DNA from: a phage | Length of the DNA: 64,000 bases | Sequence record: PZ445444.1 | Reading direction: 5' to 3' (one strand) | Part shown: positions 2,309-64,000 of the stretch, piece after piece | How the letters are laid out: each line of letters starts with the position of its first letter | How positions within the stretch are numbered: the first letter of the stretch is position 1 | The notes under the pieces: generated by a model | Told to the model about the DNA's origin: nothing | The model's database searches: none | Seen by the model: the letters and a program-made list of their open reading frames with translations, nothing else | Position numbers and translations under genes: made by a program

Positions 2309-2559
2309 CGACCATCTTCTGAGGTGATATAGTTTCCACAACAACTAAGAGAGGAGAGCACTGTGGAGACTAAAATCTTAATTCTTGCTGTGGTAGATAC
2401 AACCGAAGGAGCTATATTCGAATCTGCAGGGGGGTATTTCTACCTACCATACGGAAAAAGAACTTCCGAGCCAAGTAAAGATTCAATCCTCAAGGTGTTC
2501 CCGTGTGCTTTCTGGCTGGAGATTTTGGTATAAGATTGCAGAGGATTTGGGAGAGAATT

Positions 2560-2754
2560 ATGAGAAACAAGAAAGAGCTTTACTCTGGTGAGTGGATCAA
2601 CGATCAACAGGTGGGAGAGGTAACCTGCTTCCGATGTTTTACCAGGTACAATCTTAAAACTGCACCAAAAAGTGTTCCAAAGACTGATGGTTATTACATA
2701 AAAGAACCTCATTGCCCAAAATGTAAATGCCGATTATACTGGAGTAACCTGTAA
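2560..2754 (+). CDS. small zinc-ribbon protein
   Basis: 64-aa ORF from internal ATG with GGGAGAG RBS; CxxC...CxxC pairs. Confidence 0.45.
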   Translation: MRNKKELYSGEWINDQQVGEVTCFRCFTRYNLKTAPKSVPKTDGYYIKEPHCPKCKCRLYWSNL

Positions 2755-2817
2755 AAGATTGACATCTGAAAACTGCAGTGTATAATATATGCATAAACTA
2801 ACAGAGAGTGATGTATT

Positions 2818-3009
2818 ATGGTAATTTTTAACCGGGATGGTATCATAGTTAGACAGCACCCCTTCCTTGAATACTATCAAATTGAGCAATGGTGCTACGG
2901 GGATTGCAGTCACTCCTATGGGCAAAGTTGGGGATATCGTACAGTTTTTGAATCCACAGACCTTGACAAAGTAAGACAGAAAGTTTTAGAACTTATTAAC
3001 AACAAGTGA
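2818..3009 (+). CDS. hypothetical protein
   Basis: 63-aa ORF. Confidence 0.4.
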   Translation: MVIFNRDGIIVRQHPFLEYYQIEQWCYGDCSHSYGQSWGYRTVFESTDLDKVRQKVLELINNK

Positions 3010-3019
3010 GCATCGTGCC

Positions 3020-3352
3020 ATGGTAACATTGGAAAGACGTAAAGCTATCGCCGCCACACTGGCAGACATCTTTTGGGATTGCAACTTAAAAGATACCCGA
3101 AATTGTGGCGCATCTGTAGATGTATTATTCCCACGGCCCACCATTGTTGCAATGGGCAACCTGCTCGATGTGGTATATGGAGCATGGGACAAGGAAGGTG
3201 GATTCTATATCTGGCAACCTGACTACGGGACCTGGAAAGAGGTTAGTGGTTCTGCGGACTTCACTCCTGCAGAGGCTAAAATGGATGGCTGGAAAATCTA
3301 TGTCGGTAACGACATGAAGCTGAAAGGCGAGATTGTTTACTGGTTACCTTAA
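3020..3352 (+). CDS. hypothetical protein
   Basis: 110-aa ORF. Confidence 0.5.
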   Translation: MVTLERRKAIAATLADIFWDCNLKDTRNCGASVDVLFPRPTIVAMGNLLDVVYGAWDKEGGFYIWQPDYGTWKEVSGSADFTPAEAKMDGWKIYVGNDMKLKGEIVYWLP

Positions 3353-6839: not shown

Positions 6840-7190
6840 ATGAATACTTCCATCACTATGACCGCCGAAGAAAAAGCCCTGCAGATCGCCGCTCTGAAAA
6901 AACAGATTGCAGAACTTGAAGACAAGATCGACAATTTTGAAATCGACGAAGACAAGTACGACGATAAATATGATGAATGGTTAGACGAGATCTACGGCGA
7001 AATCATGATCGGAAACATTTCTTTTCTTCCGTCGCGTATCCTCAAGGAGCTAGATCCTATCGCTTACCGCTGCGGATTTAGCGACTACATCGACAGCCTG
7101 GATATTGAGGACGATGAAGAATACCAGGAATTACAGACAGAGCTCGAAGAAGTGAAAGAAGAGCTTGCAGAACTGGAAGAAAACGAGTAA
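6840..7190 (+). CDS. hypothetical acidic coiled-coil protein
   Basis: 116-aa ORF, AGGAGA RBS; D/E-rich. Confidence 0.6.
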   Translation: MNTSITMTAEEKALQIAALKKQIAELEDKIDNFEIDEDKYDDKYDEWLDEIYGEIMIGNISFLPSRILKELDPIAYRCGFSDYIDSLDIEDDEEYQELQTELEEVKEELAELEENE

Positions 7191-32867: not shown

Positions 32868-33341
32868 TTAGTCAACCTGAACCCAACCATCTGCTACCTT
32901 TTTAAACATTCTTTGGTTATCACTGCCTCTAAAGGGTTTTTTGGTGGGGTTATCTTTTTCGTACTTACCGTCCATAATGTAATCAACACTATCTTTAATG
33001 TAATCGGGGACTTCTTCAAACAAATACCCTGTGTACACCCAGATAGTTTTTGTGTTGCCGAAGCGTTCACGGATAGCGCAAATGATTGAATACATACCAT
33101 CAATATTGTAAGGCGCTAAAGGCTCTCCACCGCATAATGTAACGCCGGTAATATGGTTTGGTTCTATAGAGCTAAGTATGCTCTCGATTGTGTCATTTGT
33201 TAACGGTTCCCCTTTAGCGGGTGACCAAACACTTTTGTTTTGGCAACCAACGCAGTGATGTGGACAACCAGAACAGAACACCGTTGTCCTAATGCCTGGG
33301 CCGTCAACCATACTACACTCTATAATATTAACAACATTCAT
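32868..33341 (-). CDS. nrdG: anaerobic ribonucleotide reductase activating protein (radical SAM)
   Basis: 157 aa; N-terminal Cys cluster CSGCPHHCVGC and GGEP motif. Confidence 0.8.
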   Translation of the reverse strand: MNVVNIIECSMVDGPGIRTTVFCSGCPHHCVGCQNKSVWSPAKGEPLTNDTIESILSSIEPNHITGVTLCGGEPLAPYNIDGMYSIICAIRERFGNTKTIWVYTGYLFEEVPDYIKDSVDYIMDGKYEKDNPTKKPFRGSDNQRMFKKVADGWVQVD

Positions 33342-33889: not shown

Positions 33890-34882
33890 CTACAGGCTAT
33901 TACCTGTCCTATGTTTACAACAAATCTCTCTATGCGCTGATTCTACCATACTGAACACTTCAGGTCTGTAGTTAAAGAATTCGGTACTACCATCAAATTT
34001 TACAGGGAAGTTTATTTTATATTTACTGAAGGCTTTGTGCACAGATTTTTCTACAGCCAGCATGTTTTCAGTTGATCCTTCCAACGTTTTCACTATGTGA
34101 AGATCGCGGATACTAGCTCCAGATCTTTGTGCACTTTTAAGTATCTGGTCTCTTCGCTTACTTTCATTATGACTGACCCCTATTTTCATAAATGTAGGCA
34201 CTTCTGGATCATCAACCATAATGTAGAGTTTTCCGTTATCGTGTGATAAAAATCCTGTTTTAGCACATCTAGGGCAAGCATGTCCCTGCTTAAGACTGCT
34301 TGGTACGGTTAACCATGTGTGGCTACAATTTTTACAGCAGCACAGGACTTTCTTATCCCACCTAATAATTTCTTCCAATATCTCAACATAAGGATTTCTA
34401 CTTCTTATGGACTCAACCCACTTTTCGTGTGGTGATGTTTTACTTTGTGAGATTCTTGACCCCTTACAAACTGGACAACCTCTTTTCAAATTTATATGGT
34501 TATCAGGTGTCTGTGTAAAGTGATTTCCACAAGTGTTGCAGATTATTTCTACCCTGTCTTTGCAAGTCTTGTAGTATACGAGAGAGTAGTCATATTTATC
34601 TCCATGGATTTCTTTGGCCCTTTCTACAAATTTAAGACCTTTATTACACTTTGCAGCACGAGAAAGTTTTGCACAAAAAGGACAACCACGACCTTGCAAG
34701 TGTTTACAAGGTGCTTGCATAAAATCCCCATGGATTTGGCAGGTAATGCAAACCTTCGCATAGCAATCCACGTACACTGTTTTCGTGTAATCGTATTTAT
34801 AACCGTGAATGATTTTCGCCTTCTCTATAAACTCTTCTGTTGATAATTTAGCCATTTCTTGTTTCCTAACTTCTCTAAACAT
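33890..34882 (-). CDS. T5orf172-domain (GIY-YIG-like) protein with tandem N-terminal zinc-ribbon repeats; putative homing endonuclease
   Basis: 330 aa; two repeats of HG-KYDYS...C..C...GCP.C; C-terminal GKLYIMVDDPEVPTFMKIGVSHN...R matches my recollection of the T5orf172 domain. Confidence 0.6.
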   Translation of the reverse strand: MFREVRKQEMAKLSTEEFIEKAKIIHGYKYDYTKTVYVDCYAKVCITCQIHGDFMQAPCKHLQGRGCPFCAKLSRAAKCNKGLKFVERAKEIHGDKYDYSLVYYKTCKDRVEIICNTCGNHFTQTPDNHINLKRGCPVCKGSRISQSKTSPHEKWVESIRSRNPYVEILEEIIRWDKKVLCCCKNCSHTWLTVPSSLKQGHACPRCAKTGFLSHDNGKLYIMVDDPEVPTFMKIGVSHNESKRRDQILKSAQRSGASIRDLHIVKTLEGSTENMLAVEKSVHKAFSKYKINFPVKFDGSTEFFNYRPEVFSMVESAHREICCKHRTGNSL

Positions 34883-34919: not shown

Positions 34920-36164
34920 TCAGCAACTACAACTTCCATAGTGCTTAACTCGCTCGATAACTTCCGCTTGCTTACCTTTATTGTAAGGACGGGAGTTAGG
35001 ACTGGAAAGGTATCCAGACACACGTCGAATTACACTGATCGTTCCCTCTTCATGGTTTCCACACTCTGGGCATACAAAGCCTTTAGCTGTTGCACTGAAC
35101 TCACCAGAGAAACCACACTTGAGACATTTATCCACAGGTTGGTTAATACCAAAATACATAATGTGTTTATACCCGAAGTCAACAAGAGCCTCTAAAGCAT
35201 CCAGGTTGTTTTTCAGGTTGGGTGTTTCTACGTATCCGATGTTGCCACCAGAGGAGATCATAGCAAAACCTTCCTCATACTCCCACTTATCAAAAGGAGA
35301 GCTATTTATCCATACTGGCTGATGGAAACTGTTGGTGAGATATTCATGCTCGTGCTTCAACACTTCCGGATATTCACGATCCAGACAGGTTGCAGCTTTA
35401 TAGCATAGACTCTCAGAAGGAGTGCCGTACAAGCTAAATGCTAGTCTACTTTCCTTCTTGTATCGCTCACAAGCATCTCTCATGTGCTGAAGGATTCCAA
35501 GAGCTAAAGCCTTGTCACCCTCTCTGCCCAAAATCTGACAGGTTTCATACACACCGATATACCCAATACTGATGGAAGCGTACCCGTCATAGAAGAGTTT
35601 ATCAATACTCTCTTCAGGATCCAGGCGAGCAAGAGCGCCTTCACACCACATGATGGGGTTCTGCCCTGCCTTTGTTCCTTTTAGACGATTAACCCTTACA
35701 AGGTGAGCCTCGTATGCAAGATCCAAGTATTCGTCAAGAACTGCAAAGAAATCAACACCTTCAGTCTTGGCTTTTGCCGCAATCATTGGCAGGTTAAGGC
35801 TAACAACGCCTAAGTTAAATCTGCCAAGGTATTTCTCCTCGCCTGTTTCCAAGTCATTGTATTTGCTAAGAAAACTCCTGCAACCCATGCTAGTTACTTT
35901 GCCATCTGTCGAGCCTGTCACTTTTCTATTTAGTGGTACAGATACGAAGTCAGGATAGATACGTTCTGCACAGCATTCCAGAGCTAATCGTTTCAAATCA
36001 TAGTTAGGATCCCCAGGGTTCATGTTGACACCCTCTTCCAGGAAGAACAGCACTTTAGGGAACACAGGTGTGATACGTTCTTCACCAAGACCCATTTTGT
36101 GGACTTTCAGGTAGTTTTTGGTAATCATTCTACCAAAGACCGAGGTATCCAGTCCTAAACTCAA
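34920..36164 (-). CDS. nrdD: anaerobic ribonucleoside-triphosphate reductase, C-terminal part
   Basis: 414 aa; NLGVVSLNLP motif, C-terminal zinc site CLKCG...CPECG and glycyl-radical motif RRVSGYL. Confidence 0.8.
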   Translation of the reverse strand: MSLGLDTSVFGRMITKNYLKVHKMGLGEERITPVFPKVLFFLEEGVNMNPGDPNYDLKRLALECCAERIYPDFVSVPLNRKVTGSTDGKVTSMGCRSFLSKYNDLETGEEKYLGRFNLGVVSLNLPMIAAKAKTEGVDFFAVLDEYLDLAYEAHLVRVNRLKGTKAGQNPIMWCEGALARLDPEESIDKLFYDGYASISIGYIGVYETCQILGREGDKALALGILQHMRDACERYKKESRLAFSLYGTPSESLCYKAATCLDREYPEVLKHEHEYLTNSFHQPVWINSSPFDKWEYEEGFAMISSGGNIGYVETPNLKNNLDALEALVDFGYKHIMYFGINQPVDKCLKCGFSGEFSATAKGFVCPECGNHEEGTISVIRRVSGYLSSPNSRPYNKGKQAEVIERVKHYGSCSC

Positions 36165-36976
36165 TGTGATGAATGGAGTCTGCTGTCTCCTCCCTGTGTT
36201 TCCACAGGGCCAGACTATCTCTTACTCTACTTCAATAAGATAATAACCCTTTATTGTGAGATGCTTACCTTCGGCATTTCCTTCGATAGCCCTATGAACG
36301 TTACCTACGTTCAAATTTAAGGCTTTTGCACAGGCATAGAGTGAAGGATATTCACCCACCAAGGTTTTCCCTTTGTATGCCTGCACTTTCCTATAGCACT
36401 TACCTGGACAAAGTCCTGTTCGGAAAGCATGTCTCTTATTATCTTCCGGCAAAACCCACTCTAGGTTAGACGGATGATCATTCAATGTATTGCCATCTTT
36501 ATGATTCACTTCCCAGTTTTCAGGGTCTTCTGGGACATCCGGCAAACAATACAAGGCAACAATCCTTGAGGTTTGGATTCGAATCTTTTTACCTTTGTGG
36601 TTGAAAGAGTACATATAACGGCGTTTAACATGCTTGTTACCTTTTCCATAACCTCCCCACAATATTGGGTGTAGCATTCCACGTTTTCCGTATACGTTTC
36701 CAACCTCATCAATCACATAGTTTGATTCTTCACCATTAAGAATGATCTTTTTCATAGAGCCTCTCCATTTCGAAGTTAGTATTTCAACTAACCCCTACAC
36801 TACTTGGTTCAGAAATGTTTGTCAAGCATCTCTGCCTTTCGTTAGTCGTTACAACCGTTCCAACTCCTGTAAGAACTAGTCACGGGATTGGCATAGCTTT
36901 CGCCTTAGCGTTCCCCGTTAGCCGGATTTACCGACCCCTCTTATGAGGTTAGGAGAGTTTTACAACGGCCAGTTTG
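36165..36976 (-). mobile_element. insertion splitting nrdD: probable group I intron carrying an HNH homing-endonuclease ORF
   Basis: about 810 bp between the two nrdD ORFs; flanks are non-AT-rich and non-coding. Confidence 0.5.
36222..36755 (-). CDS. HNH homing endonuclease
   Basis: 177 aa; HNH motif region NHKDGNTLNDHPSNLEW. Confidence 0.75.
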   Translation of the reverse strand: MKKIILNGEESNYVIDEVGNVYGKRGMLHPILWGGYGKGNKHVKRRYMYSFNHKGKKIRIQTSRIVALYCLPDVPEDPENWEVNHKDGNTLNDHPSNLEWVLPEDNKRHAFRTGLCPGKCYRKVQAYKGKTLVGEYPSLYACAKALNLNVGNVHRAIEGNAEGKHLTIKGYYLIEVE

Positions 36977-37840
36977 TTAACCGTTGACAGAAGTTAACGT
37001 ATTGATTTGATAGAGCAAAGTCTGCATGCTGTCAAATACGTCTTTATCTGTCATTTGCATTGCAACAGTCTCAGCATCTGGCAACCAATGTTCCTGGCAA
37101 AATTTAAGGTTCTTCTCATAGGTCGCTTCAGCATACTGTGCCAGATAATGATCAATATGGCTCATAGTCTGACCCCCATATTGAGCACTAGCTACTGCAC
37201 TAGAGATTTGGCTAAGGATTGTTGTTGCAACCCCTATTGACTTAGGCTTACTGACATGGGCGTTACCAATGTTGAATCCGTTTTCCAACATATCTGGATA
37301 ATTTACCAAACAACAGTTTGTTAACGGACTGATCAAGTAGTCAAGATCATGCACATGGATGAAGCCTCTATTGTGCTCTTCTGAGACACGGTCTGGCAGG
37401 ATCTGTGTTGATGCAAGGTGTTTGCTAAGAATGCCTGCAAGCAGGTCACGATGAGTGTGTACATGATTGGTAGGCTTATTTGCGTTTTCTTTTGTAAATT
37501 CATCACAAGTGCGATCCAAGAAGCCACTAATATCTGCAAGCAGTTTTCCACCTGCCTCTCTGTTATTATCTCTTGTCTGCCTATACTGGATGTATTCTCT
37601 GGCTGCACATTTTAAACCCATATCCATAAGAGCGTCTTCAACAAGGATATGGATATTTTTTACAGAGATCGTGCACTGGTCGGTTGGTAGATTGTTAGCA
37701 ACAACTTCATTAACCGCGCAGGCGATCCGGTAAGCTTCTTCTTCAGTATGTCCAGACTCAAGTAAGGCGGACTCTGCCGCCTTGATCACCTTAATTCCGT
37801 TATAGACCTCTTCTCTACCGTCCCGTTTTACAACTTTCAC
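36977..37840 (-). CDS. nrdD: anaerobic ribonucleoside-triphosphate reductase, N-terminal part (ATP-cone)
   Basis: 287 aa; N-terminal ATP-cone-like VVKRDGREEVYNGIKVIKA. Confidence 0.75.
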   Translation of the reverse strand: MKVVKRDGREEVYNGIKVIKAAESALLESGHTEEEAYRIACAVNEVVANNLPTDQCTISVKNIHILVEDALMDMGLKCAAREYIQYRQTRDNNREAGGKLLADISGFLDRTCDEFTKENANKPTNHVHTHRDLLAGILSKHLASTQILPDRVSEEHNRGFIHVHDLDYLISPLTNCCLVNYPDMLENGFNIGNAHVSKPKSIGVATTILSQISSAVASAQYGGQTMSHIDHYLAQYAEATYEKNLKFCQEHWLPDAETVAMQMTDKDVFDSMQTLLYQINTLTSVNG

Positions 37841-60742: not shown

Positions 60743-60817
60743 GCCCTGTTAGCTTAGTGGATAAAGCAGCGGCCTTCTAAGCCGTTGACACTGGTTCGAG
60801 TCCAGTACGGGGTGCCA
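60743..60817 (+). tRNA. tRNA-Arg (anticodon TCT)
   Basis: hand-folded cloverleaf: 7-bp acceptor GCCCTGT/ACGGGGT, D stem GCTT/AAGC, anticodon loop CTTCTAA, T loop TTCGAGT, encoded CCA. Confidence 0.75.
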
Positions 60818-60821
60818 AATT

Positions 60822-60908
60822 GGGGAGTTATCCCGTAGAGGTAGCGGTGTAGACTGTAAATCTATTGTCATTGCGACTCGGGTGGTTCGACTCCACCACT
60901 CCCCACCA
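60822..60908 (+). tRNA. tRNA-Tyr (anticodon GTA), long variable arm
   Basis: acceptor GGGGAGT/ACTCCCC, anticodon stem-loop GTAGA-CTGTAAA-TCTAT, T arm GGTGG-TTCGACT-CCACC, CCA. Confidence 0.7.
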
Positions 60909-61022
60909 AATTTATATTTTTAGATGCATAAATAATACAGATAATGGCATTGATATTTATCGTCGTTTATACTAGTCACTAACTGCTCGAAAATCAGTGT
61001 CATTATCAGTATAATTTATAAA

Positions 61023-61113
61023 GGAGGGTAGGGAGCAATGGTGCTCAAGCGGTCTTGAAAACCGTCCCGTTGAGGATGACTCGATGATGGTTCGATTCCA
61101 TTACTCTCCGCCA
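61023..61113 (+). tRNA. tRNA-Ser (anticodon TGA), type II
   Basis: acceptor GGAGGGT/ACTCTCC, anticodon loop CTTGAAA, long variable arm, T loop TTCGATT, CCA. Confidence 0.6.
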
Positions 61114-61211
61114 CATTGTTGACCTTGTAATTAAGCGAAAGCCGGAAGCAGAACCGGATTATCAAATGTTACAGTCGTCATCGCCGACTAGCAACATGGT
61201 CAACATACTGA

Positions 61212-61310
61212 GCTAGGTAAGCCCTTTGGCAAGGGCGAGGATTTTTAATCCTGAAAATAGACGAGGTAGTCGTTGAATACATAGGTGGTTCGATTCCATC
61301 ACCTAGCACC
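61212..61310 (+). tRNA. tRNA-like gene, atypical (99 nt; anticodon loop TTTTTAA suggests TTT/Lys; ~28-nt variable region)
   Basis: acceptor GCTAGGT/ACCTAGC, D arm GCCC-TTTGGCAA-GGGC, 4-bp anticodon stem AGGA/TCCT, T arm GGTGG-TTCGATT-CCATC; CCA not fully encoded. Confidence 0.4.
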
Positions 61311-61315
61311 TTTTT

Positions 61316-61391
61316 GCTGATGTAGCACAATCGGTAGTGCAATTGATTTGTAATCAATAGGTTGTAGGTTCAAGTCCTGCCATCAGCACCA
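61316..61391 (+). tRNA. tRNA-Thr (anticodon TGT)
   Basis: acceptor GCTGATG/CATCAGC, D stem GCAC/GTGC, anticodon arm ATTGA-TTTGTAA-TCAAT, T loop TTCAAGT, CCA. Confidence 0.8.
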
Positions 61392-61392
61392 A

Positions 61393-61467
61393 GGCCCTGT
61401 AGCTGGAAGGTTCAAGCAAGCGACTCATAATCGCCAGACGGTGGTTCAATTCCACCCAGGGCCACCA
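61393..61467 (+). tRNA. tRNA-Met (anticodon CAT; initiator, elongator or Ile-lysidine type not resolved)
   Basis: acceptor GGCCCTG/CAGGGCC, anticodon loop CTCATAA, T arm GGTGG-TTCAATT-CCACC, CCA. Confidence 0.75.
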
Positions 61468-61478
61468 AATAATAAATA

Positions 61479-61555
61479 CTCCGCGTAGCTCAGCTTGGTA
61501 GAGCGCCTGATTTGGGATCAGGAGGTCGAGTGTTCGAATCACTCCGTGGAGACCA
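61479..61555 (+). tRNA. tRNA-Pro (anticodon TGG)
   Basis: acceptor CTCCGCG/CGTGGAG, D arm TAGCTCAGCTTGGTAGAGC, anticodon arm CCTGA-TTTGGGA-TCAGG, T arm GAGTG-TTCGAAT-CACTC, CCA. Confidence 0.8.
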
Positions 61556-62375: not shown

Positions 62376-62659
62376 GAGTTGCCACACTGTTTATTGCGTG
62401 CTTGTTATTATGTGGGTGTGCAACCAGCGTTGAGAGAGAATACAAGATTGACCCTCCGGATGTAGGAAGGTTGATTGTTAAACCCCCAGAAGGTGCCATG
62501 AAACCACCTGCTAAAGCTATGCCTTTGAAGAAAGGTGCGCCAGATGCAGTGAATTCTGGCATTATGAGGGATAATAATCTGTCTTGTAGCAATGATAGAG
62601 CTAAATTGATCATTTTGCAAGACTATATTAGAACACTGTTTCCAAAGGAGAGAGGTTAA
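62372..62659 (+). CDS. putative o-spanin (Rz1-like lipoprotein)
   Basis: 95 aa; signal peptide with Cys-containing lipobox-like LLLCGC; proline-rich mature region; overlaps upstream stop by 4 nt. Confidence 0.55.
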   Translation: MRVATLFIACLLLCGCATSVEREYKIDPPDVGRLIVKPPEGAMKPPAKAMPLKKGAPDAVNSGIMRDNNLSCSNDRAKLIILQDYIRTLFPKERG

Positions 62660-63087
62660 TGTCTAAGATTTACGGACCGTGTTCTGAAAAGCAGAAGATG
62701 ATCCTCGAAAACGATGCAGATATCTTGGTAATCGGCGGTGCCGCAGGGTCTGGCAAGTCGTTCCTCTTGCAGTTGATGCCACTTAAAATTATTGATGACC
62801 CCCACAGCTCTGTGGTTATGTTCCGAAGAACAACCCCACAGTTGGAAGGTGAGGGTGGATTATGGCCTAAAGCAGTAGCTATTTATAGTGATCTGCCTGA
62901 AAACATTAAGCCAAAGTTTAGAGAGAAGGATCATAAGTTCATTTTTCCACGGTTTGATCCGAACACTGGCAAGTGGGATAGAAGCAAAAAGGGAGCTGTT
63001 GTAAAATACTGCCACATGGAGTATGTACAAGATAAGCTTAACCATCAGGGGCTTGAGTACACCATGGTTTGCTTCGATGAGGGTTAA
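62659..63087 (+). CDS. terminase large subunit, N-terminal ATPase part (exon 1 or split-gene fragment)
   Basis: 142 aa; Walker A VIGGAAGSGKSF, ORF ends right after Walker-B-like MVCFDEG. Confidence 0.65.
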   Translation: MSKIYGPCSEKQKMILENDADILVIGGAAGSGKSFLLQLMPLKIIDDPHSSVVMFRRTTPQLEGEGGLWPKAVAIYSDLPENIKPKFREKDHKFIFPRFDPNTGKWDRSKKGAVVKYCHMEYVQDKLNHQGLEYTMVCFDEG

Positions 63088-64000
63088 TTTGTAGCTCTCG
63101 TAAAACCTCCCTAATTGCGGGGAAATCTTTATTATTGACACCACCAACCTGTCATGGTAACATGACAGAGGCTTCGAAGAGAGATCGAAGGTATGGTAAC
63201 AGTGTGTTAATTTAGATAATCCGCAGCGAAGCATCCGAGAGGATGAACGTTCAACGACTAGTCGAAAGACGTAGAATCAAGCGATTCGAAACGGGAGGGT
63301 GAATGTGTAATACTAAAAAATGTATGGATTGCCAAAGAGTTCTACCTATTGATGATTTCTTTTTATCATCTAAGAGCAAGGATGGATACTCAGGTACATG
63401 CAAGGAATGCTATATGTACTACAGGAAGGGTGGATCTCGTAAAAACAAAAATATGGTTAAGAGAGATGATGCAGCATTGTTTATTCAAGACTTGCTGAAG
63501 AAAGGTGAACTTTTTGAATGCAAATCTTGTCATGAAAGTATGCTCGCTGATAGTTTTTACACAAAACGTGACTATGGTAAAGTATATCTGGTTACGAACA
63601 GGTGTAAGATGTGTGAAAAGTTTTATCAGATTGAGAAGAAATTTCACATAACAAAAGATGAATACTATCGTCTACTCTCAGATCAAGATCATAAGTGTGC
63701 CATTTGTAGAATATCCCTTGATGAGTATAGGACGCAAGGGTATAGAGATTTCTTTTGTGTTGATCATGACCATAAAACTGGTGCTGTAAGAGGGTTGCTT
63801 TGTGATAAATGCAACAGAGCTTTAGGTTTCTTCCAAGAGGATGAGGAAACTATTCTTAGAGCGGCAGAGTATTTACACATTCATAAGATATAGTCTGGTC
63901 TGCATGGAGACATGCAGCTGCCTGAAAATGGCGGGGCAAGACTAGCGACCTTGCCCGAACATAAACGACACAATTCGAATGGGAGCAGATAGACTACCTG
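63088..64000 (+). mobile_element. probable group I intron (partial, continues past window) with an Endo VII-type nuclease ORF
   Basis: 215-nt non-coding stretch after the truncated terminase ORF, then the nuclease ORF, then further non-coding sequence to the window end. Confidence 0.45.
63303..63893 (+). CDS. Endo VII-type (HNH-like) homing endonuclease with N-terminal zinc fingers
   Basis: 196 aa, GGGAGGG RBS; CMDCQ...CKEC and CKSC zinc-finger motifs; Endo VII signature VDHDHKTGAVRGLLCDKCN. Confidence 0.7.
   Translation: MCNTKKCMDCQRVLPIDDFFLSSKSKDGYSGTCKECYMYYRKGGSRKNKNMVKRDDAALFIQDLLKKGELFECKSCHESMLADSFYTKRDYGKVYLVTNRCKMCEKFYQIEKKFHITKDEYYRLLSDQDHKCAICRISLDEYRTQGYRDFFCVDHDHKTGAVRGLLCDKCNRALGFFQEDEETILRAAEYLHIHKI

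Follow-up and report, generated by a model that had tools for sequence, protein, structure and literature searches.

A probable group I intron with an I-HmuI-like HNH gene in its P8 loop interrupts nrdD of an rV5-like coliphage

What interrupts nrdD, the gene for the catalytic subunit of the anaerobic ribonucleotide reductase (RNR), in phage record PZ445444.1? In the 64,000-nt stretch of this record that we analysed (the window, to which coordinates refer unless a contig is named), the locus lies on the minus strand, where the gene order is nrdA, nrdB, glutaredoxin gene, nrdD, and it is made up of three open reading frames (ORFs), 36977–37840, 36222–36755 and 34920–36164. A sequence-only reading of the window had recognised nrdD in the two outer ORFs and an HNH endonuclease in the one between them, all three of which we found at exactly these positions and on this strand, and it had left two explanations side by side, one a group I intron that carries a homing endonuclease, the other a permanent split of the gene. 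Our analysis supports the former. What sits at the conserved NG|QTPF motif is very probably a group I intron that splices and that carries an I-HmuI-like HNH gene in P8, as suggested by a collinear 707-aa excision product, a group I core with a U.G pair and a terminal G at its ends, compensatory changes in its helices and the existence of 257-nt versions lacking the ORF.

The upstream ORF (287 aa) matches the Pfam ATP-cone and NRDD profile positions 1–154, while the downstream ORF (414 aa) matches NRDD profile positions 163–562 and Gly_radical. The former had been taken as the ATP-cone part of the protein; the ATP cone is indeed located there, but the same ORF also covers the start of the catalytic domain, its first 170 residues or so. 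Likewise, the separation of about 810 bp that had been stated holds for the gap between the two ORFs, which is 812 nt, but ORF limits are not exon limits and the true insert comprises 797 nt (36183–36979). Its first three bases are the TAA stop of the upstream ORF (36977–36979), and the real first base of exon 2 is 36182; the TTG at 36164, chosen mechanically as a start, is an ORF-calling artefact lying 18 nt into the exon. Alignment to uninterrupted NrdD, proposed earlier as a way to locate the exact junction, placed it at 36980/36182 when the sister phages Murica and JES2013 were used: in silico excision of 36183–36979 joins 36980 (...AAC GGT) to 36182 (CAG ACT CCA...) and yields an NrdD of 707 aa, which matches the proteins of both phages in length and is collinear with them. 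The joined protein reads ...TLTSVNG|QTPFITLSLG... across the junction, and compared with Murica 11 of 708 codons differ non-synonymously. The predicted ligated RNA junction is ...AACGGU|CAGACUCC....

The proposed anatomy of the locus is given below in the order 5' to 3' on the minus strand; every helix coordinate was checked against the sequence.

36980–37840, minus strand: nrdD exon 1; GTG start overlapping the glutaredoxin stop, ATP cone and first part of the NrdD catalytic domain, ending ...AAC GGU; its last 6 nt (AACGGU, 36985–36980) form the P1 5' strand
36183–36979, minus strand: putative group I intron, 797 nt, beginning UAAC (UAA being an in-frame stop for exon 1) and ending ...GACAG (terminal G)
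36756–36979, minus strand: 5' part of the ribozyme, helices found by comparative analysis
36969–36964, minus strand: P1 3' strand GCCGUU, pairing with AACGGU over 6 bp, U.G at the 5' splice site
between the P1 3' strand and the P3 5' strand, minus strand: J1/3, GUAAAA
36957–36952, minus strand: P3 5' strand CUCUCC
36921–36948, minus strand: two extra hairpins, CCUC-AUAA-GAGG and GUCGG-UAAAU-CCGGC, between P3 and J3/4, with compensatory changes
36920–36913, minus strand: J3/4 (UAA) plus P4 (ACGGGG/UCCCGU)
between P4 and P4', minus strand: P5/P5a, GAAA loop
36887–36882, minus strand: P4'
between P4' and the P7 5' strand, minus strand: P6/P6a
36847–36843, minus strand: P7 5' strand GACUA
36834–36810, minus strand: P7.1
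36795–36772, minus strand: P7.2
36766–36761, minus strand: P3 3' strand GGAGAG, preceded by CGAAAU
36760–36755, minus strand: P8 5' strand GCUCUA
36222–36755, minus strand: intron ORF, 177 aa, I-HmuI-like HNH, filling the entire P8 loop
36183–36229, minus strand: 3' part of the ribozyme, from the P8 3' strand to the terminal G
36229–36224, minus strand: P8 3' strand UAGAGU
between the P8 3' and P7 3' strands, minus strand: J8/7, AAGAGA
36217–36213, minus strand: P7 3' strand UAGUC
36209–36192, minus strand: P9, CCCUGUG-GAAA-CACAGGG, GAAA loop
terminal G at 36183, minus strand: 9-nt intron tail A-GGAG-ACAG
36175–36190, minus strand: hairpin across the 3' splice site, intron GGAG (36190–36187) pairing with exon-2 CUCC (36178–36175)
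34920–36182, minus strand: nrdD exon 2, beginning CAG ACU CCA (Q-T-P-F...); rest of the catalytic domain and glycyl-radical domain, stop codon included

Both ends of the insert carry the expected signals. All 8 distinct sequences have P1 (AACGGU/GCCGUU) with U.G at the junction; the 3' end of the intron is ...ACAG, ...ACCG or ...AAUG, with a terminal G throughout. P10, read straight from the sequence, is weak and comprises just 2–3 bp (CAG with CUG in the window); a short and weak P10 is usual for group I introns. The J8/7–P7 strand AAGAGAUAGUC agrees with the consensus of the Rfam group I family RF00028, and between the exons neither a sigma-70-like promoter nor a convincing terminator was found. 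Taken by its helices, the structure would be a group I core of the T4-like IA2 type.

To assess this fold, four representative sequences were compared strand by strand, the relatives including ORF-less introns, and all core helices were found in each of the four. P3 covaries (CUCUCC/GGAGAG versus CUCUGC/GCAGAG), P7.2 shows a compensatory change from A-U to G-C, P9 changes from C-G to U-A twice and from G-C to A-U once, and at P8 three unrelated sequences each form a hairpin. Among the 49 pairs aligned unambiguously by MAFFT, 99.2% of cells pair, compared with 28–53% when the partners are slid; 8 of these pairs are changed on both sides, compared with 0–2 when slid, and none of 500 shuffles reaches the observed values. 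MAFFT misaligned the P7.1–P8 region of the rows resembling phage nom, and P3, P7.1, P7.2 and P8 were checked strand by strand instead. Unconstrained folding of the ORF-less RNA recovered P1, P3, P4–P6a, P7.1, P7.2, P8a, P9 and the hairpin at the 3' splice site (z = −4.4), with 0 of 200 shuffles folding as well. Between the exons of the window and those of nom, 63 codon differences are synonymous and 9 non-synonymous, which shows both exons to be under purifying selection in the intron-bearing lineages.

The ORF filling the P8 loop scores 29.3 bits with Pfam HNH_3 (cutoff 24.8) and aligns end to end with I-HmuI (PDB 1U3E; phmmer, residues 8–160, E = 2.7e-4), which bears out the earlier assignment of an HNH endonuclease between the nrdD halves. 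Equivalents of H75, the I-HmuI general base, and of N96 are kept; a match to I-HmuI_NUMOD-like is weak, at 18.4 bits versus a Pfam cutoff of 27. The ORF is intact in 6 of 6 copies read, whose differences are mostly synonymous. Copies of at least 95% identity are confined to approximately 27 Vequintavirus records, and the next relatives are less than 40% identical. The P3 3' strand GGAGAG doubles as its Shine–Dalgarno (SD) sequence, and P8 reaches into both ends of the ORF: the 5' strand of this helix finishes on the A of the AUG, and the 3' strand on the U of the UAA stop. SD and AUG lie in the strands of P3 and P8, and the start signals would therefore be paired in the folded ribozyme. In the T4 td/I-TevI system such pairing delays endonuclease translation relative to splicing.

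Some observations weigh against an insert that splices and is mobile. DNA comparison alone leaves a slide of the boundaries by 1 nt, since GG|U...ACA|G also gives Gly-Gln; the limits 36183–36979 were chosen because group I rules demand that a U precede the 5' splice site and that the intron finish with G, and these rules alone decide. The covariation stems from just three independent lineages, and the structure was derived from those same sequences. The HNH ORF has Asn where I-HmuI has its metal ligand D74, for which reason endonuclease activity is not assured. Finally, the RF00028 cutoff is missed: the window intron scores 27.7 bits, whereas the curated gathering cutoff is 50 bits, and a scan of the window at Rfam gathering thresholds reported no intron.

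The group I covariance-model scan that the sequence-only reading had proposed consequently gave a divided answer. In targeted scans RF00028 was the best Rfam match (E-values of 1e-4 with the window and 8.8e-6 with the ORF-less form), but the scores of 27.7–29.8 bits, with ORF-less forms at 29.3–29.8, remained below the cutoff; a more diverged version from metagenome contig L012 reached 41.8 bits and the T4 nrdD intron 105 bits. With RF00028 sub-threshold, the group I call therefore rests mainly on comparative anatomy, and the missed cutoff is a scoring threshold, no biological defining property. We ascribe the low score to the two extra hairpins (36921–36948) between P3 and P4, which make the model misplace P3: the printed RF00028 alignment forces P3 onto the strand just before J3/4, whereas approximately 30 nt intervene between the true P3 strand and J3/4. 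This alternative placement of P3 was rejected, since its strand CCGGC has no complement at P3' in the window or in L012, while CUCUCC/GGAGAG pairs perfectly and covaries. In the window RF00028 was found only in a permissive scan, whose alignment put the 5' half within the HNH ORF.

The two hairpins are also found elsewhere. Introns in other genes on the metagenomic phage contigs L011, L015, L032, L034, L035 and L036 share their frame, CC-UAA-CC[hairpin]GG-GGU[hairpin]-UAA-CGGGGAA. In L011 (4785–6100) and L015 (reverse strand), metagenomic phage contigs of about 150–180 kb, the intron has P3 = CAUACC/GGUAUG and the same module of P3, hairpin, hairpin and P4, together with a GIY-YIG-type ORF after P4', apparently in P6; judged from its translation, the host gene would be DnaE-like. 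Module-bearing introns that Rfam detects at all score 27.7–41.8 bits, all below 50. In L035 the module-bearing intron scores 30.6 bits, compared with 79–88 bits for conventional introns of the same contig, and for L011, L032, L034 and L036 no RF00028 match was obtained at E < 0.1. With seven RF00028 matches (30.6–87.8 bits) in less than 5 kb, positions 7182–11879 of L035 (IMGVR_UViG_3300045988_168855) are unusually intron-dense. A tentative idea, which we regard as doubtful, is that the nrdD intron belongs to a structural subclass of IA2-like phage group I introns that has not been described before, characterised by the lack of P2, by two covarying hairpins between P3 and J3/4 and, at least in the nrdD family and L011/L015, by a 3' splice site in a hairpin loop. 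If true, such introns would be systematically unannotated and their host genes called as split.

The last of these traits, the hairpin across the 3' splice site, joins intron and exon. The last intron bases pair with positions +5 to +8 of exon 2, so that the terminal G and the bases forming P10 sit in a loop of 6–8 nt. The pairing is GGAG/CUCC in the window, GGGG/CCCC in the nom type and GGGCA/UGCCC in L012; 2 of 4 pairs change on both sides, covarying with wobble positions of the exon. An analogous hairpin, GAAAA.../...UUUUC, was read directly across the inferred 3' splice site of L011 and L015. We propose that this hairpin presents the splice site to the ribozyme core; the pairing may constrain synonymous and, in one case, non-synonymous exon positions. 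No description of such an intron–exon hairpin at a 3' splice site was found in the literature.

The window derives from an rV5-like coliphage (Vequintavirus), its 3.1-kb region being 98.5% identical to Mangalyan and 94–99% identical to slur16, FFH2, FV3 and others. Approximately one quarter of about 120 related records carry the intron with the endonuclease and approximately 14 an ORF-less intron, while the rest are intronless, so closely related genomes are polymorphic for presence, absence and ORF content of the intron. The ORF-less intron of 257 nt occupies the identical site in nom, bov10K2, CM1 and others (these being the ~14 records), and L012, with its more diverged nrdD, has an ORF-less intron of 279 nt at the same site that is closest to the window type. 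At the insertion site all 6 intact intronless alleles read (L005, L006, L028–L031), which were taken from GenBank phage records, show GGG|CAA; a degenerate search of IMG/VR for intronless junctions found none. Alleles bearing the endonuclease read GGT|...|CAG and ORF-less alleles GGT|...|CAA, with GGT in all intron-bearing alleles read. GGT is found with the intron and GGG without it, and therefore the U required for splicing appears to travel with the intron, as co-conversion predicts. The GGG of the intronless site might also affect cleavage by the endonuclease. A further allele is seen in phage V18 (L027, KY683736; 121–160), which has exon flanks of the nom type but misses the intron and the first 2 nt of exon 2 (AACGGT|AACCCC); the deletion shifts the nrdD frame, no coding sequence (CDS) is annotated there, and it represents either imprecise intron loss at the DNA level or an assembly error.

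From these data a pathway can be proposed in which nrdD would be transcribed as one pre-mRNA and ribosomes on exon 1 would stop at the UAA seen in the first three bases of the intron. The intron RNA would fold into the comparatively derived ribozyme, with P1 and its U.G, a P3/P7 pseudoknot core, P4–P6, P7.1/7.2, P8 and P9. Transesterification initiated by guanosine would then remove the 797 nt and join ...AAC GGU to CAG ACU..., giving the 707-aa NrdD predicted in silico. By analogy with T4 td/I-TevI, translation of the HNH ORF and folding of the ribozyme would be mutually exclusive, its ribosome-binding site (RBS) and start codon being paired in P3 and P8. I-HmuI is a nicking endonuclease. In a mixed infection the window endonuclease may nick or cut intronless nrdD near NG|QTPF, and recombinational repair could copy in the intron together with adjacent exon bases.

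The last steps of this pathway presuppose an active enzyme, and we expect that the HNH endonuclease is probably still active. The reverse case, in which the intron splices but its HNH protein has lost activity or has ceased to drive homing, leaving inheritance vertical or by general recombination, is the most serious competitor, albeit an unlikely one. It would account for Asn at the D74 position, for the sub-threshold NUMOD-like DNA-binding match and for the existence of ORF-less derivatives. However, the ORF has stayed intact with mostly synonymous differences, and it retains both N96 and the general base H75. Across phages the intron varies less than the nrdD exons around it: copies of the intron share 99.2–100% identity where the flanking exons share only 93–98%.

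Far less probable is a permanently split gene, in which a free-standing HNH gene divides nrdD into two separate genes and their products reassemble, with no RNA splicing involved. Purifying selection on both halves would fit it equally, a functional split RNR is known from nrdA of Aeromonas phage Aeh1 (PMC3653736), and many GenBank records list two nrdD CDSs and an HNH gene, some with predicted RBSs. However, the spacer is no free sequence but a conserved, covarying group I fold, and versions without the endonuclease persist at the same site. The sequence-only reading had held that the intron would be contradicted by the lack of both a spliced transcript and an intron-like structure, with each half having an RBS of its own and being translated separately; in the sequence we find a ribozyme fold and, in front of the downstream piece, no credible SD. 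Moreover, starting that piece at the mechanical TTG or at an annotated ATG would lose 6–18 conserved residues (QTPFIT...), and the junction base U occurs exactly and only in alleles bearing the insert.

About as improbable, and if anything slightly more so, is a decayed group I intron that splices inefficiently and leaves nrdD effectively a pseudogene, tolerated since a class Ia NrdAB is also encoded. The sub-threshold Rfam score and the unusual insertion between P3 and P4, which could be disruptive, agree with decay, and the frameshifting deletion in V18 shows that nrdD can be broken. This is countered by the core helices, all of which are intact with changes that are compensatory and not disruptive, by extra hairpins that covary and recur in other phage introns, and by the large synonymous excess over non-synonymous differences in both exons of the intron-bearing lineages. 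An intein is rejected since a stop codon ends exon 1 and the HNH ORF, with its own SD and AUG, is set off from both exons by non-coding RNA, and a twintron was dismissed from the ORF layout.

The closest known counterpart of the putative splicing intron in the window is the group IA2 intron (I-TevII) in nrdD (sunY) of T4, which shares the host gene, the group I type, the lack of P2 and the succession of P1, GUAAAA and P3. Further shared motifs are GUAAAA-P3, P7 GACUA/UAGUC, P7.1/P7.2, GUAGGG-hairpin-CGAAA-P3' (CGAAA-N-P3'), AAGAGAUAGUCUG and the J8/7–P7 strand AAGA(U/G)AUAGUCUG, and in both introns an in-frame stop lies at the intron start, on the 5' splice site or immediately past it. In contrast, the T4 site is located inside the Tyr codon of ...AYE-Y-EVNTLFSSNG-QTPF..., while the window site lies 32 nt downstream, after NG and before QTPF. 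T4 carries the GIY-YIG enzyme I-TevII downstream of P9, where the window has an I-HmuI-like HNH in the P8 loop; the two hairpins between P3 and P4 are absent from the T4 intron, and the short 3' tail that pairs with the exon is a feature of the window intron, unlike that of T4. These would be related ribozymes at different sites with unrelated endonucleases, consistent with independent invasions.

Regarding the endonuclease, the DNA-polymerase intron of Bacillus phage SPO1 with I-HmuI (1U3E) is likewise a phage group I intron with an HNH gene, and the proteins agree in size (174 versus 177 aa) and domain order over an end-to-end alignment. It differs in host gene and host phylum, the alignment is weak by its E-value, and D74 is replaced by Asn. 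In nrdA/mobE of Aeh1 an RNR gene is also present as two ORFs flanking an HNH-type endonuclease gene (PMC3653736), but there no intron exists and two polypeptides reassemble, whereas in the window a covarying group I fold lies between the ORFs and ORF-less forms exist. Nearer relatives add to this picture. The Certrevirus phage CB7 (Vequintavirinae) has HNH-bearing introns in terL, DNA polymerase, nrdA and nrdB, with splicing demonstrated by RT-PCR (PMC7344957); by this description it resembles the window in subfamily and in HNH genes within introns of replication and nucleotide-metabolism genes, but an interruption of nrdD is not reported there. For rV5 itself, introns were described in the terminase gene only (PMC3606486), and rV5 and FV3 are absent from the main text of a survey of phage RNR genes (PMC3653736).

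In BASEL records (e.g. EmilHeitz, MZ501062) nrdD is already given as a joined CDS enclosing a 'putative homing endonuclease', the intron boundaries having been set by comparative genomics (PMC8594841). A literature search for a description of the structure of the Vequintavirus nrdD intron found no paper. Most GenBank records of these phages list two nrdD genes and an HNH gene, where one spliced gene would be the correct annotation, and a routine Rfam scan at gathering thresholds leaves the intron unflagged in phages that are widely used as candidates for biocontrol and therapy. An HNH-bearing phage group I intron is a well-known selfish element, and the current understanding of group I introns is unchanged; the structural peculiarities may define a variant class, and both the hairpins between P3 and P4 and the one spanning the 3' splice site depart in structure from the T4 intron paradigm in ways that can be tested. 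The Vequintavirus phages furthermore offer an allelic series at one site, comprising intronless (GGG|CAA), endonuclease-bearing, ORF-less and imprecisely deleted forms, which is convenient for studying the homing cycle, co-conversion and the need for U at position −1.

Further insertions were noticed in nrdD and its surroundings. In JEP1 (L003, ~2330–3077), phita32 and 'Campylobacter phage C2', nrdD contains a further insertion, close to the active-site cysteine motif SMG|CRSF and some 310 nt past the start of exon 2; the JEP1 insertion carries a different HNH ORF and scores 32.9 bits with RF00028. A neighbouring intron in L012 (3707–3947, 75 bits) is probably its counterpart, and since the L012 nrdD frame has another break further upstream, this gene may contain three introns or more. 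Approximately 19 'UNVERIFIED Campylobacter phage' records (MG0656xx) are near-identical Vequintaviruses at the nrdD locus; the one record opened is classified as Vequintavirus FFH2, and the Campylobacter host label looks doubtful.

Between nrdD and nrdG (32868–33341) the window holds a 330-aa ORF (33890–34882, minus strand) with treble-clef zinc-finger repeats (DUF4379) and a T5orf172/MUG113 (GIY-YIG-like) domain. At the same place Murica and JES2013 have no more than a 117-nt ORF, and the window ORF is probably an insertion of the free-standing, homing-endonuclease-like kind. A second group I intron is located in the gene of the terminase large subunit (region 62659–63917, plus strand), where RF00028 matches 63075–63917 with 48.5 bits, just short of its cutoff of 50. 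Upstream of it a terL ORF with Walker A/B motifs spans 62659–63087 as called, and the window ends before the next exon. The intron ORF (63303–63893, plus strand, 196 aa) is endonuclease VII/HNH-like, and the intron matches the one reported in terL of rV5 (PMC3606486), a phage of the same genus. It differs from the nrdD intron in gene, in its endonuclease VII-like ORF and in a conventional architecture that scores near the Rfam cutoff. Finally, Rfam places six tRNA genes at 60743–61552 (plus strand), together with two weaker matches of the tRNA-Sec type at 60822–60904 and 61023–61109.

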